Shown here in pieces: positions 60,591 through 63,981 of a stretch of DNA of 64,000 bases. The notes below the pieces were generated by a model. That model was not told the origin of the DNA and ran no database searches. It saw only the letters and a list, made by a program, of their open reading frames with translations. The stretch is taken from contig CAZTGZ010000001.1 of NCBI GenBank assembly GCA_964613385.1, positions 105,836 to 169,835 on the forward strand, read 5' to 3'. Source of the DNA: an uncultured Chitinophagaceae bacterium. Its GTDB lineage: Bacteria; Bacteroidota; Bacteroidia; NS11-12g; UBA9320. The number at the start of each line of letters is the position of its first letter. The stretch's first letter is position 1. The position numbers and the translations under genes are program-made.

Positions 60591-61309
60591 AAGCACTGAT
60601 TGTTGACGATGAACCGCTGGCACGTCAGCATTTGGAAATGTGTCTGAAAAAAATTTCGGGGATGGAAGTGGTGGGCACGGCCGGAGATGGATTTGAGGCC
60701 CTCCAGCTGATGAAGGAAATACATCCCGATATCATCTTTCTCGACATCCAAATGCCGCGTATCAATGGCTTTGAGGTGTTGGAATTGCTGGAAGAGAAAC
60801 CGGCCATCGTATTTATCACCGCTTTTGACAGCTATGCCATCCGCGCTTTTGAAATGAATGCGGTGGATTATTTGTTGAAGCCATTTTCACAATCGAGATT
60901 GGAACAAGCCATACAAAAAGCTCAACAGCAGGTTTCATTGTCATCAGGGAATTGGATGAACCGGGAAAAAACACCCGAAGAACAGGGCAGGATTGTATTG
61001 AGGCATCAGGGAGATATCCGAATGATTCCGGTTCATCAGATATATTATGTTGAAGCCTATGATGATTTTGTGAAGATACATACGGAGAAGGAGACCTTTG
61101 TGAAAAAGCAAACCCTCAGTTATTACGAAACGAATTTGTCGACCGCCGGTTTTGTGCGTTGCCATCGCAGCTATTTGGTAAACACCCAATGCATTACAGC
61201 CATACACCACGTAAAGGGTGAAATCTGGGAAATCCGCTTAAAGAATGGTTATCATATACAGGCCAGCAAGCAGGGTTATGGAAGGTTAAGGGAGGGGATG
61301 GGATTTTAG
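60587..61309 (+). CDS. LytTR-family response regulator
   Basis: Receiver domain (MKALIVDDEPLARQHLE...DIIFLDIQMP) plus C-terminal LytTR DNA-binding domain (IPVHQIYYVEAYDDFVKIHT...). 4-nt overlap with the kinase gene. Confidence 0.85.
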   Translation: MKALIVDDEPLARQHLEMCLKKISGMEVVGTAGDGFEALQLMKEIHPDIIFLDIQMPRINGFEVLELLEEKPAIVFITAFDSYAIRAFEMNAVDYLLKPFSQSRLEQAIQKAQQQVSLSSGNWMNREKTPEEQGRIVLRHQGDIRMIPVHQIYYVEAYDDFVKIHTEKETFVKKQTLSYYETNLSTAGFVRCHRSYLVNTQCITAIHHVKGEIWEIRLKNGYHIQASKQGYGRLREGMGF

Positions 61310-61567
61310 GAAAAATAGATCTGGTGGAGAACTCAATGGAGATTTTACTTTTTATGGGGAAAAGCAAGTTAGAAATTAGTTGAAGCTGTTATCCATACCC
61401 TGGTAAGACGCGCTTATCAATAAGATGGACTAAGATCAATAGGGTAGAGTAGCCATGTTATAAGAATGTATCAGAGTCCCTTTCAAGTGACTCCAATAGA
61501 GAGAACGCCGTCATTTGTCATGGTGAGCTTTGTTTGGTTAAGCGTGTTACATAACGGTTTAGGGCTA

Positions 61568-61676
61568 CCCGAAGGGCGGGACTTTTACCACTCCCTTTAG
61601 CGATCTGGATGATTTGAAAAACTGATGTTTGAATAACATCAAAACTGCCTTTGAAACAGAAATCCCGCCTTTTGGG
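61568..61676 (+). other. candidate structured RNA element: a 14-bp long-range helix (CCCGAAGGGCGGGAC / GAAATCCCGCCTTTTGGG) enclosing a 7-bp hairpin
   Basis: Seen directly. Arm 61568-61582 pairs with arm 61659-61676, including two G·U pairs that are possible only in the plus-strand transcript. An internal hairpin TGATGTT-tgaat-AACATCA lies at about 61622-61640. The element sits in a 433-nt ORF-free gap. Confidence 0.35.
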
Positions 61677-61742
61677 TAGGTGCTTCCTGTAGCCGGGCTA
61701 TTATAATATTAGTAGGGTGATGGGTTCTATTAATTTGCATTG

Positions 61743-62783
61743 TTATTTTATCGTGTAGCTCACATTGCGTCCACTTCCTTGTTTTTCAATGAGTCCTTTG
61801 TGGAGCAACCCTGACAAAATGCGTTTTACGGTTGGTGCGGGTATCGCCAACTTTACGGCAATTTCTCCCGACTGGATGTTCGGACGGTATTGAATAATAG
61901 AATAAATTGATTTTTCTTTGACCGAAAGCTGTGTTTCCATTCCACTTTTTTGCAGTTTCGTCAGCAGTTGCGATTGGATATTTGACAAGCAATTCAAAAA
62001 GAACATTATCCAAACGGTTACATCTTCATTAGGGCGTTGTGCATGACAACTTCTAAGCACTTGATAATATTCGTTTTTTCGGTTTTCTACTTCGTGTTCA
62101 AAACTCACGTATTCTATCCATTTATATCCGTTTTTGAGCAGCAAAAGCGTTGAAATCAAACGGCTTAGCCTGCCGTTTCCGTCTTGAAATGGGTGAACGC
62201 TCAAAAAATCATAGACAAAAGACGCTACTTTGATTAACGTATGCACTTCCGTTTCGGAATTATACCAATTGAGCAAAGCCCTCATGGCCTCTTCGGTGGC
62301 AAATCCTGCTTCGGTAGTTTGAAAAATGATTTGTCTTGTGCCGTCAGGAAGTGAGGCTTCAACCGCATTGTTATGCAGCTTATAATTGCCTTTATGCCAT
62401 TTGTCTTTGGCACTATATTTCAACAAACAATTATGTAAATTTTTGATTTGGCTTTCGGTAATGCTGATGTTTTCATAAGATCCCGAAATCAAGTCCAGTA
62501 CTTCAAAATAACCGACTACTTCCTGCGAATCTCTGTCGGTAAGCTTAGTATTATCAATTTTTTGAAGTAATACATCAACTTCTTCATCGCTCATTCTGTT
62601 TCCTTCAATACGGTTTGAAGCCCCTACGCTTCTCACTGTAGCAATGCTTTTCAACTCTTTGAGGCTTTGTCCTTCTCTGCGTTCAATAGCTGTCCAATGG
62701 GCATCAAAACGGTCTAGTTCACTGATTAAGTTAATCAGCTTCCAATTAATTTTTACTTTTAAATTGTATACTTGGTTGTCCAT
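61743..62783 (-). CDS. Fic family protein (class II, N-terminal inhibitory helix) with C-terminal winged-helix domain
   Basis: Fic active-site motif HPFQDGNGRLSRL; inhibitory (S/T)xxxE(G/N) motif SNRIEGN in the N-terminal Fic_N region; C-terminal wHTH-like tail (IAVKLAIPAPTVKRILSGLLHKGLIEKQGSGRNVSYTIK). Confidence 0.85.
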   Translation of the reverse strand: MDNQVYNLKVKINWKLINLISELDRFDAHWTAIERREGQSLKELKSIATVRSVGASNRIEGNRMSDEEVDVLLQKIDNTKLTDRDSQEVVGYFEVLDLISGSYENISITESQIKNLHNCLLKYSAKDKWHKGNYKLHNNAVEASLPDGTRQIIFQTTEAGFATEEAMRALLNWYNSETEVHTLIKVASFVYDFLSVHPFQDGNGRLSRLISTLLLLKNGYKWIEYVSFEHEVENRKNEYYQVLRSCHAQRPNEDVTVWIMFFLNCLSNIQSQLLTKLQKSGMETQLSVKEKSIYSIIQYRPNIQSGEIAVKLAIPAPTVKRILSGLLHKGLIEKQGSGRNVSYTIK

Positions 62784-62785
62784 TT

Positions 62786-62857
62786 TGATACGATTTGATA
62801 CGCAAAGATACCGTTAAGATTTGAAACCGCATACAAAAAATGATACGATTTGATACG
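62786..62857. promoter_or_regulatory. two 17-bp direct repeats TGATACGATTTGATACG (62786-62802 and 62841-62857), each a tandem GATACG-ATTT-GATACG; putative operator/promoter of the Fic gene
   Basis: Seen directly. Copy 1 abuts the Fic start codon (complement of 62781-62783). On the minus strand a TATCTTTG (-7 TAnnTTTG-like) box lies between the two copies. Confidence 0.4.
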
Positions 62858-62967
62858 TTTAGATTTGATTATGAAACGAAAAATGTCATGGTTTTAGGTG
62901 GTGCGCTTGTCATGTTGTGGGTTTTCACACCTTGCGCTAGCGTGTTGAAGCTACCCGAAGGTGGCGT

Positions 62968-62983
62968 CCCGAAAGCTTTCGGG
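62968..62983. repeat. perfect 16-bp palindrome CCCGAAAGCTTTCGGG
   Basis: Seen directly. Self-complementary; 5' neighbour of the GCTACCCGAAGG motif shared with the 61564 region. Confidence 0.5.
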
Positions 62984-63039
62984 ATCGGAGCACAAATCTG
63001 TCTGCCAGCACAGAACTTGAATAGAACCACAAAGCTCCA

Positions 63040-63059
63040 ATCCCGATAGCTATCGGGAT
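63040..63059. repeat. perfect 20-bp palindrome ATCCCGATAGCTATCGGGAT
   Basis: Seen directly. A 19/20 near-copy, ATCCCCATAGCTATCGGGA, occurs at about 56894-56913 inside the membrane-protein CDS. Confidence 0.5.
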
Positions 63060-63117
63060 GCACGTCACCCCGCCTGAGGCAAAACCCGTGTTATAGCCAT
63101 TGGTTCTTGTCCTTTCG

Positions 63118-63981
63118 TTATTCAAATTCCACAGGTTCAAAAAATTGTCTGCCTAATGCATAAGATATCAATCCTTCATGCTGCAATCTTCCTATAATAA
63201 TAGCGGGATGGGTATTAAATTTTTCTGCAAATTCAATTACATCCTCTTCGGTAATTCTGAATCGTTGTAAAATTTCTTCTTGTTCTTCTTTTGAAAGTGT
63301 CCATTTAATGGCAAAGTTATCGGCTTCTTTTTCTTTCTGTTTGTCTTTCTCAGAATAGTCAATGTTCTCCAAGAAAATATCCTTTTTGCCATGTAGCAAA
63401 ATATGCCCTGCCTCATGAAAGAAAGTAAACCAAAAGCTGTCGATACGTTTGTAACGACCTGTTAATTGAATTAAAGGCGTATCGTTTATCCAACGGGTGC
63501 TACCATTGATTGGGGCTTTATTGATGCAAGGCGTATGTACCACTTTTACACCTGCTTCCAAACAAACTTGTTGCAATTGCTTGAAGAAATTATTAGGATG
63601 CTTTGCCATAATGCTTTTAATCTCGGGCAATGCTTCTTTAAAATCTTTTTCTTCATAGGGTTTGGTTGGCAATTCGGCTGCTTGCAGTTCGCCTTTACGC
63701 AACCATGCAGAAATGGCATAAGGTTCTTTGGTATGTGCCAACGAAATACGGAACGCTACTTTTAGTTGCTGCTTGAAATAGTAATCTTCCCAAGCGTAAT
63801 GATTACTGATACTGAAAAACGCCAACAGTTCTGATGTTTTTTCTTCGATAGTGGTTTTAGCCGGTAGCCAACCTTTTTTTACCATGTCAGGAATAGGGAA
63901 ATTTCTTGCCCAATCGGTTGATTCTGCCAACAGTTCCTGACGTTCTTCACGGGCAATATATTCATCATAGCTTCGCTGCAT
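63118..63981 (-). CDS. ImmA/IrrE family metallo-endopeptidase (DUF955); N-terminus may continue beyond the window edge
   Basis: HExxH in FTFFHEAGHILLHGKKDIF with the downstream acidic motif (EKEADNFAIKW) typical of ImmA/IrrE. The reading frame stays open from 63981 to the window end, so the true start (possibly an XRE-type HTH domain) may lie outside the window. Confidence 0.7.
   Translation of the reverse strand: MQRSYDEYIAREERQELLAESTDWARNFPIPDMVKKGWLPAKTTIEEKTSELLAFFSISNHYAWEDYYFKQQLKVAFRISLAHTKEPYAISAWLRKGELQAAELPTKPYEEKDFKEALPEIKSIMAKHPNNFFKQLQQVCLEAGVKVVHTPCINKAPINGSTRWINDTPLIQLTGRYKRIDSFWFTFFHEAGHILLHGKKDIFLENIDYSEKDKQKEKEADNFAIKWTLSKEEQEEILQRFRITEEDVIEFAEKFNTHPAIIIGRLQHEGLISYALGRQFFEPVEFE

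Follow-up and report, generated by a model that had tools for sequence, protein, structure and literature searches.

We analyzed a 64,000-nucleotide stretch of DNA (hereafter the window) from an uncultured Chitinophagaceae bacterium (contig CAZTGZ010000001.1 of assembly GCA_964613385.1), in which a gene encoding a Fic protein of 346 amino acids (61743-62783, minus strand) is preceded by eight short direct repeats that run up to its start codon. These repeats are probably the operator of a self-contained Fic cassette, whose product would bind the array and repress its own gene. The clustering of the repeats is real and far from what chance would produce. The proposed binding and repression draw on comparative sequence evidence from related loci, which is presented below together with the explanations that compete with it.

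An earlier sequence-only reading of this region had described five GATAC(G/C) half-sites upstream of the Fic ATG (complement of 62781-62783) as a repressor-operator layout. Its coordinates hold: the 17-mer TGATACGATTTGATACG lies at 62786-62802 and again 55 bp away at 62841-62857, and an additional GATACC occupies 62807-62812. The repeats are thus real, but five was too low a count. Read in the sense of the Fic gene, the full array has eight units of 10-11 bp arranged in two blocks of four, with the promoter between and within them. The distal block (62838-62878, minus strand) consists of CGTTTCATAAT (62868-62878), CAAATCTAAA (62858-62867), CGTATCAAAT (62848-62857), and CGTATCATTT (62838-62847). 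The proximal block (62784-62823, minus strand), to which Tandem Repeats Finder assigned a period of 10, consists of CAAATCTTAAC (62813-62823), GGTATCTTTG (62803-62812), a second CGTATCAAAT (62793-62802), and CGTATCAAA (62784-62792), the last of which directly abuts the Fic ATG. Taken by itself, the hexamer GATACG shows no enrichment across the window (19 observed against 15 expected); the signal is its clustering, with four of the 19 copies falling inside 72 bp. The 17-mer, by comparison, had just two matches in the 64 kb with up to three mismatches allowed (0.27 expected; two were reached in 3 of 100 shuffles).

Promoters of the Bacteroidota usually carry -33 and -7 elements, the latter of the form TAnnTTTG, and a TTTG 19 nt from this box is the usual spacing. 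The promoter-like box and upstream TTTG previously proposed on the minus strand are both there. The candidate -7 box, TATCTTTG (62803-62810, minus strand), lies in the second proximal unit, and the putative -33 region (62830-62837, minus strand) lies in the variable spacer between the blocks, with TTTG at -54 to -51 (62834-62837) and TATG at -50 to -47. In relatives, the -7 box is kept as TAT(C/A)TTTG, with variation at the 'n' position only, and in most of them the distance from the TAnnTTTG box to a TTTG upstream of it, within the variable spacer, is exactly 19 nt. Transcription would then start some 14-17 nt before the ATG. The suggestion that the repeats overlap both the promoter and the translation start was therefore borne out, with the candidate -7 box inside the array and the ATG abutted by its last unit.

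A protein-guided scan, taking one genome per species, gave 80 loci (designated by L numbers below) with Fic relatives of 63-92% identity, spanning Cytophagia, Flavobacteriia, Saprospiria, Chitinophagia, Bacteroidia, and Ignavibacteria/Kapabacteria. Conservation of the repeats at orthologous Fic loci had been named by the sequence-only reading as a check on the operator, and they are present in nearly all of these approximately 80 genomes, in the common layout ...CGTATCATAATCAAATCTAAACGTATCAAATCGTATCA, a variable spacer, and then TTTCAAATCATAATCGTAT(C/A)TTTGCGTATCAAATCGTATCAAAATG. We quantified this footprint as the majority-base fraction over the 61 loci in which protein identity was 75% or higher. 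The proximal and distal blocks scored 0.921 and 0.902, respectively, compared to 0.631 for the inter-block spacer and 0.58 and 0.56 for the flanks, while the first, second, and third codon positions scored 0.94, 0.96, and 0.752. Conservation of the blocks is thus similar to that of the non-synonymous codon positions, so purifying selection on them is as strong as at amino-acid-determining sites.

The homology between the window and the 80 loci, which represent at least five classes of Bacteroidota, covers only the Fic gene together with 100-160 bp on its 5' side and about 55 bp on its 3' side, and Fic is the sole gene of this conserved block. Neighboring genes were also unrelated at five further places for which wider views were taken. 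In the 630 kb around Fic loci, the pattern CGTATC[AT]NNNCGTATC occurs 136 times; 135 of these sites share the strand of a Fic gene and stand within 200 nt 5' of its start, and the one left over belongs to a truncated duplicate of the same region. The Fic protein is also unusually uniform, the best 120 clusters (P0002-P0120) being 84-92% identical despite very different sources, one of which is a metagenome-assembled genome labeled Candidatus Moranbacteria. Many of the contigs in these clusters are just 1-3 kb long and end close to the gene. Both the uniformity and the contig ends are consistent with recent horizontal spread and with assembly breaks caused by repeats.

The same comparison bears on a second binder that had been put forward, the XRE/ImmA-type regulator encoded next door, which adjoins Fic in this window only. 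Neither the ImmA-type gene nor the LytTR regulator gene that flanks Fic on the other side is common to any of the 80 loci, yet the repeats are kept in nearly all of them. In the window, the ImmA-type gene is part of a different cassette, with an attC-like element between it and Fic, and its visible open reading frame (ORF) is a peptidase in which Pfam detected no helix-turn-helix (HTH). This neighbor is excluded as a general binder, and we regard its binding to the repeats as extremely improbable.

The number of proximal-unit copies varies from two in the window to 4.0 in L054 and 4.9 exact copies in L025. The unit CGTATCAAAT is expanded to 3.4-4.9 exact copies in L025 (1792-1840), L047, and L054, which indicates recent gain of units by slippage. 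Such variation would be expected of a slippage-prone tract or an RNA leader, in which the copy number, or CGUAUCAAAU in the 5' untranslated region, tunes expression or translation; the last one or two units should moreover be transcribed if the -7 box is used. On the other hand, the distal block is upstream of the inferred promoter and equally conserved, and the sequence of the unit, beyond its length, is conserved and covaries with the DNA-binding helix of Fic, as described below. Operator function and slippage can coexist, and a tract or leader as the explanation of the repeats seems quite improbable to us.

The candidate repressor carries both an enzymatic and a DNA-binding domain. Pfam identified a Fic domain (1e-14) and, at the C-terminus, a TrmB/MarR-like HTH, for which the matches (TrmB, 2.1e-5; MarR/HTH_24) were all slightly below the cut-offs. 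An AlphaFold2 model placed three helices and a two-strand wing at residues 288-345 with a predicted local distance difference test (pLDDT) score of 85-90. The predicted winged helix (residues 286-346, in the order helix-helix-helix-strand-strand) is encoded at 61746-61928 on the minus strand, and its modeled recognition helix, APTVKRILSGLLH (residues 316-328), at 61800-61838 on the same strand. Full-length Foldseek matches were 8cil, 3zec, 3eqx, and 7xux, the closest structural neighbors being CbFic2 (the best), SoFic, a Bordetella Fic, and CccR. The PADLOC model for the SoFic anti-phage defense family matched residues 44-343 (6.7e-41), and PDB entry 8uqu was matched with 1.9e-29. The catalytic motif HxFx(D/E)GNGRxxR is present as HPFQDGNGRLSR at residues 197-208, and H197, P198, F199, Q200, D201, G202, N203, G204, and R208 are invariant in 43 homologues. 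An inhibitory motif, (S/T)xxxE(G/N), is found N-terminally in the same polypeptide as S56-N-R-I-E60-G61 (SNRIEG), of which S56, E60, and G61 are invariant in the same set. Judged from these motifs and the model, the protein has the build of a class II Fic adenosine monophosphate (AMP)-transferase and the domain architecture of SoFic, CccR, and CbFic2. It is a distant relative of SoFic and not an orthologue, given a score of 57.1 bits against a cut-off of 550 for the NCBIfam equivalog NF046030.

A small ORF with the pattern MK(I/F)N..ND..NI located 3' of the Fic stop was considered as an AS1-like antitoxin of the kind found downstream of EcSofic. Only 12 of 81 loci have it in intact form, and in close relatives it is frameshifted, stopped, or without a start codon. 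Thus, unlike in the SoFic family, no AS1-like small antitoxin gene is conserved 3' of Fic, and the two-gene layout of a type II toxin-antitoxin system was not found in the conserved block, which holds one ORF.

Precedents for self-binding exist among the structural neighbors. CccR of Yersinia pseudotuberculosis represses itself by binding, through its C-terminal HTH, across the core elements of its promoter; its site, AGATAATCAT-N26-ATGATAATCT, consists of two inverted 10-bp boxes bound by a back-to-back dimer (PMC9755527). Like the window Fic, it is a Fic toxin with a C-terminal HTH, and its fold (PDB 7xux) matches that of the window Fic over the full length. The two nevertheless differ in sequence, where similarity is low (E 1.7e-5), in the site, which is a split inverted repeat rather than eight direct repeats at a 10-bp period, and in setting, CccR being a type VI secretion system effector and the window Fic the product of a cassette-borne chromosomal gene. 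SoFic of Shewanella oneidensis (SO_4266) has the same domain order and binds as a dimer to the first 100 bp 5' of its own gene (bioRxiv 10.64898/2026.07.09.737422), which parallels the upstream-region self-binding proposed here, although no binding motif has been defined for SoFic. The best structural match, CbFic2 of Coxiella burnetii (PDB 8cil), is a winged-helix Fic in which DNA-induced dimerization switches AMPylation to deAMPylation; its binding was followed with 20- and 40-bp double-stranded DNA, and no dedicated operator was reported (PMC10628234). By analogy, the enzyme of the window Fic might likewise be under the control of DNA binding.

The repeats and the recognition helix of Fic change together. 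IPxPTVKRIL is invariant at every locus with CGTATCA repeats, down to 63% protein identity. The sole exception among the 80 loci is L077, in which the helix reads MSRAIVIRVL and the repeats TGTAACA. A second protein search showed that L077 stands for a whole second subfamily; six loci of this subfamily all have tandem arrays in the corresponding position, with 4-14 copies and invariably a 10-bp period. SR(M/A)IVIR and TRIIVIR helices go with TGTAACA or TGTATCA cores, ISRTIVIR with TGTTGCA, ISKWIVYR with TAGTTGCA, and IARLSIIR with (C/T)GTATCATT. The repeat core thus tracks the Fic recognition helix, as expected for a Fic protein that binds its own upstream array. Because Fic is the sole conserved gene, because core and helix covary, and because CccR and SoFic provide precedents, we favor the C-terminal winged helix of Fic itself, which the sequence-only reading had listed among its candidates, and consider it with good confidence the most likely binder of the repeats.

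Several observations weigh against this assignment. The covariation comes from the six loci of the second subfamily, and a few Fic genes that carry the 17-mer have divergent helices (SILSTKRAL in L129 and NANRNTIKK in L193). The inverted-repeat dimer of CccR leaves the direct-repeat geometry proposed here without a direct precedent. In addition, a metagenome scan for the exact 17-mer found at least 121 sites. Among the matches listed, 43 had Fic downstream, 5 were at contig ends, and 44 were isolated pairs, which may be chance occurrences in so large a collection; among the same listed matches, 29 of the 71 multi-unit arrays had no Fic gene downstream. Several of these Fic-less arrays are truncated cassettes, and some precede unrelated small genes. 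In L115, L147, and L168, a CGTATCA operator/promoter module abuts the start codon of a gene for a 93-amino-acid Cys-rich protein that starts MIKKxExCIYCGEKMES, and the module likewise abuts the start codons of unrelated small genes in L126/L146, L184, and L199. The notion that the motif is private to Fic thus holds in the 630 kb around Fic loci and only partly in the metagenome scan. The sites therefore do not belong to Fic exclusively, and the Fic-less arrays would need a binder that acts in trans.

Multi-unit arrays at the starts of unrelated small genes are what would be expected if a regulator encoded elsewhere, such as a host factor or another mobile-element protein, bound CGTATCA arrays and Fic were one member of its small regulon. 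Such a regulator would have to accommodate a cassette that occurs in many Bacteroidota classes among unrelated neighbors, a repeat core that changes with the recognition helix of Fic itself, and a motif found, in the sequence around Fic loci, only 5' of Fic. A Fic copy in the same genome could also serve the non-Fic arrays in trans. On balance we judge a regulator encoded elsewhere to be unlikely.

If Fic is the binder, each of the eight units, at a 10-bp period, would present one helical turn. The distal block would sit just 5' of the -33 element, and the proximal block would cover the -7 box, the presumed start, and the short leader to the ATG. The Fic winged helix, through a recognition helix that includes APTVKRIL (residues 316-323), would dock on the direct repeats head-to-tail along one face of the DNA, probably cooperatively, and bound Fic would occlude RNA polymerase. 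A potentially toxic SoFic-like AMP-transferase would in this way limit its own level and keep it low, whatever location the cassette reaches. A similar geometry is found in iteron-type operators such as parC of plasmid R1, in which two clusters of approximately 10-11 bp direct repeats flank the core promoter and ParR, the product of the downstream gene, binds the clusters cooperatively and represses itself. ParR, however, is a ribbon-helix-helix centromere binder, whereas the binder proposed here is a toxin-fused winged helix and no partition is implied. While an autorepressed winged-helix Fic is known in principle, the new elements are the helix covariation and the operator architecture, in which two blocks of variable copy number surround the promoter; we found no paper on a Fic operator of direct repeats phased at one turn with helix covariation.

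The description of Fic as a cassette derives from the boundaries of the conserved block. On the 5' side, homology to relatives ends at 62935-62947, and the cassette boundary is at 62935-62942 (minus strand), where relatives read AAAC G|TTAGTAGCAAGG and the window reads GCTAGCGCAAGG, with the GTT core lost. On the 3' side, relatives have ...GCCCAGCTACTAAC and then a variable hairpin with ...AAAC GTTA at its end, and CTACTAAC is the reverse complement of GTTAGTAG. In the window, the corresponding attC-like element occupies 61553-61694 (minus strand). Its 3' end, AAACC|GTTATGT, is intact (GTT at 61553-61555), and its 5' R'' core is decayed, reading GCTACAGGAAG (61682-61694) compared to GCTACTAAC in relatives. 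A 26-nt segment of this element (61564-61589) matches exactly part of an element 3' of Fic in an Ignavibacteria metagenome-assembled genome (L029:4270-4295), and the surrounding DNA of L029 differs from that of the window.

An nhmmer profile built from 11 elements, all from other genomes, found exactly two elements in the window, which flank Fic and are both in the Fic orientation. The element of the Fic cassette was matched at 61551-61682 (E 1.1e-4), and its 20-nt arms are 85% complementary. All 54 profile matches in the loci are co-oriented with Fic, with up to 6 elements in 7 kb (L015). Elements in relatives are 127-128 nt long with invariant AAC and CGTT. Hairpins of this attC-like family, typically of about 128 nt, form co-oriented arrays between single genes in many Bacteroidota genomes, as at L015, L057, L068, L016, L007, L018, and L075.

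A signature of integron-type cassettes, which recombine at G|TT through a circular intermediate, is an element whose 5' core pairs with the first bases of the cassette to which it belongs. We found this signature in relatives where neighboring elements are well defined. Fic cassettes begin TTAGTAGC, and their elements begin GCTACTAA. Complementarity to the own cassette start, compared to the in-situ pairing, was 6/6 against 3/6 in L018, 6/6 against 2/6 and 5/6 against 3/6 in L068, and 6/6 against 2/6 for the Fic cassette in L015. The decayed window copy does not show this complementarity. Its Fic element keeps the GTT end and has lost the AAC end, while the upstream element keeps AAC and has GCT in place of GTT. 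Both core triplets of the window Fic cassette are thus mutated (GTT to GCT; TAAC to AGGAAG), and the coding region and operator are intact. With these triplets mutated, the cassette looks immobilized, which suggests that it can no longer move and forms the final unit of the array, next to the LytTR two-component genes.

Further attempts to characterize the hairpins were less informative. RNAalifold returned no consensus structure for a MAFFT alignment of the 11 elements, as their arms were out of register. Ungapped 11-mer arm complementarity was only weakly discriminating (8.1/11 for own arms against 7.3/11 for cross pairs), since GGCGG/CCGCC cores are common to all elements. Covariation of the arms is visible by eye. 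Rfam searches of 61200-63300 with permissive thresholds found no known RNA family; the sole match, to a plant microRNA, was sub-threshold (24.9 bits against 85) and was caused by the long hairpin.

These units resemble the toxin-antitoxin and defense cassettes of chromosomal integrons, which carry their own promoters, in being single-ORF units bounded at G|TT, with an imperfect-palindrome element at the 3' end, in co-oriented arrays, and in their defense-type cargo (from PADLOC), which has also been described for Vibrio integron cassettes. They differ in an R-to-L spacing that looks atypical, in the absence of both core triplets from the window copy, and in that the only recombinases beside arrays (L023 and L009) are without the IntI-specific insertion. 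Complete integrons have been reported to be rare in Bacteroidota groups. From their sequence features, we call the elements attC-like and the arrays integron-type, and treat their membership of the integrons as tentative.

The other attC-like element in the window (62942-63098, minus strand; R''-like end GGCTATAAC at 63090-63098) ends the upstream ImmA cassette and was matched by the profile at 62934-63094 (E 3.6e-5), with a fold z-score of -3.3. This element holds the two perfect palindromes that had been proposed as dimeric transcription-factor sites or transcript hairpins. Both palindromes are where they were reported: CCCGAAAGCTTTCGGG (62968-62983), within the insertion TCCCGAAAGCTTTCGGGA (62967-62984), and the palindromic insertion ATCCCGATAGCTATCGGGAT (63040-63059). 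They are 89% identical to each other and lie within 28-nt arms that are 86% complementary. Aligned with the palindrome-free elements L014u and L018u, the window palindromes are two insertions, and other copies hold one at a third position. The TCCCGAAAGCTTTCGGGA module recurs in L007 and L133, and an identical core of the second palindrome, TCCCGATAGCTATCGGGA, in L038, L057 (twice), L070, and L186. The GC-rich palindrome TCCCGAWAGCTWTCGGGA is nearly unchanged in other genomes (L004, L007, L031, L038, L057, L070, L133, and L186), where it takes varying positions inside attC-like elements and behaves as an insertable hairpin module.

As perfect palindromes of 16 and 20 nt located 150-280 bp 5' of Fic, these sequences have the appearance of dimeric binding sites or terminators that regulate Fic. 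They are, however, outside the block conserved with Fic and belong to a repeat element, other copies of which separate unrelated genes in other genomes. They are missing from the homologous elements L014u and L018u and placed elsewhere in others, and six further loci have the same palindrome with no relation to a Fic promoter. In relatives, palindromes were not seen at a fixed distance from Fic, and no T-run follows the palindromes as would be expected of terminators. A part in Fic regulation is thus very improbable. Judged by sequence comparison, the palindromes are optional hairpin modules of the recombination element and not Fic operators, and they would have no role in Fic autorepression. 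The proposed operator layout accordingly stands in part, the repeats being conserved, overlapping the -7 box, and reaching the start codon, and the palindromes forming no part of it; the term hairpin was right for hairpin-forming DNA and not for Fic regulation.

No IntI is visible in the window, which ends 19 bp past the ImmA gene, and no integrase was found within 10 kb in L210-L213. In L023 (117-1027, minus strand) and L009 (5017-5430, minus strand), a gene for an Xer/IntI-like tyrosine recombinase is divergent from an attC-like element at a distance of 117-130 nt. These two proteins are 59% identical to each other. The recombinase has a 42-residue gap at the IntI-specific insertion and scored 157 bits against a cut-off of 265 for TIGR02249. 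A tblastn probe with an IntI1 sequence served as a lead only; its sole match was L023, which was then checked with NCBIfam. In L081 (8567-9781), the Fic cassette is directly 3' of a gene for a Bacteroidota-type tyrosine integrase (Arm-DNA-bind_5, Phage_int_SAM_5) beside an aspartyl-tRNA synthetase gene, which places this cassette at the edge of an integrative island and not in an attC array.

The upstream neighbor of Fic in the window, an ImmA/IrrE-type metallopeptidase gene (63118-63981, minus strand; Pfam Peptidase_M78, 5.5e-11), belongs to a separate cassette. Its product matched PADLOC PD-Lambda-2_B (2.2e-38), and the cassette may carry part of another anti-phage system. The start of this cassette, along with any partner genes, is outside the window.

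More speculatively, and largely by analogy, SoFic-like toxins across Bacteroidota could travel as integron-type cassettes, each with a private array of 2-14 repeats that are spaced by one helical turn and matched to the recognition helix of its own toxin. Beyond repression, the array would serve as a docking platform on which the toxin is polymerized and catalytically silent, through DNA-induced oligomerization as in CbFic2, until active enzyme is released when the DNA is lost or competed for during phage attack. Recombinases of the Xer-like type, without the IntI-specific domain, may service the cassette arrays. We regard this extended scheme as doubtful. If it were true, Xer-serviced cassette arrays would make up a new, so far undescribed type of integron-like system.

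CccR is the one winged-helix Fic for which autorepression has been demonstrated; for SoFic it has been suggested. The SoFic-like family is very large and counts anti-phage defense genes among its members, and no operator logic has so far been described for it. Because the subfamilies differ in a few helix residues and in a 10-bp core, they offer a testable recognition code, and matched sets of helices and repeats would provide orthogonal repressor/operator pairs for Bacteroidota. The attC-like elements point to many cassette arrays in Cytophagia, Flavobacteriia, Saprospiria, and Chitinophagia, where complete integrons are reported to be rare. With its own promoter and its own brake aboard, a toxic single-gene cassette of this kind would be portable between hosts.

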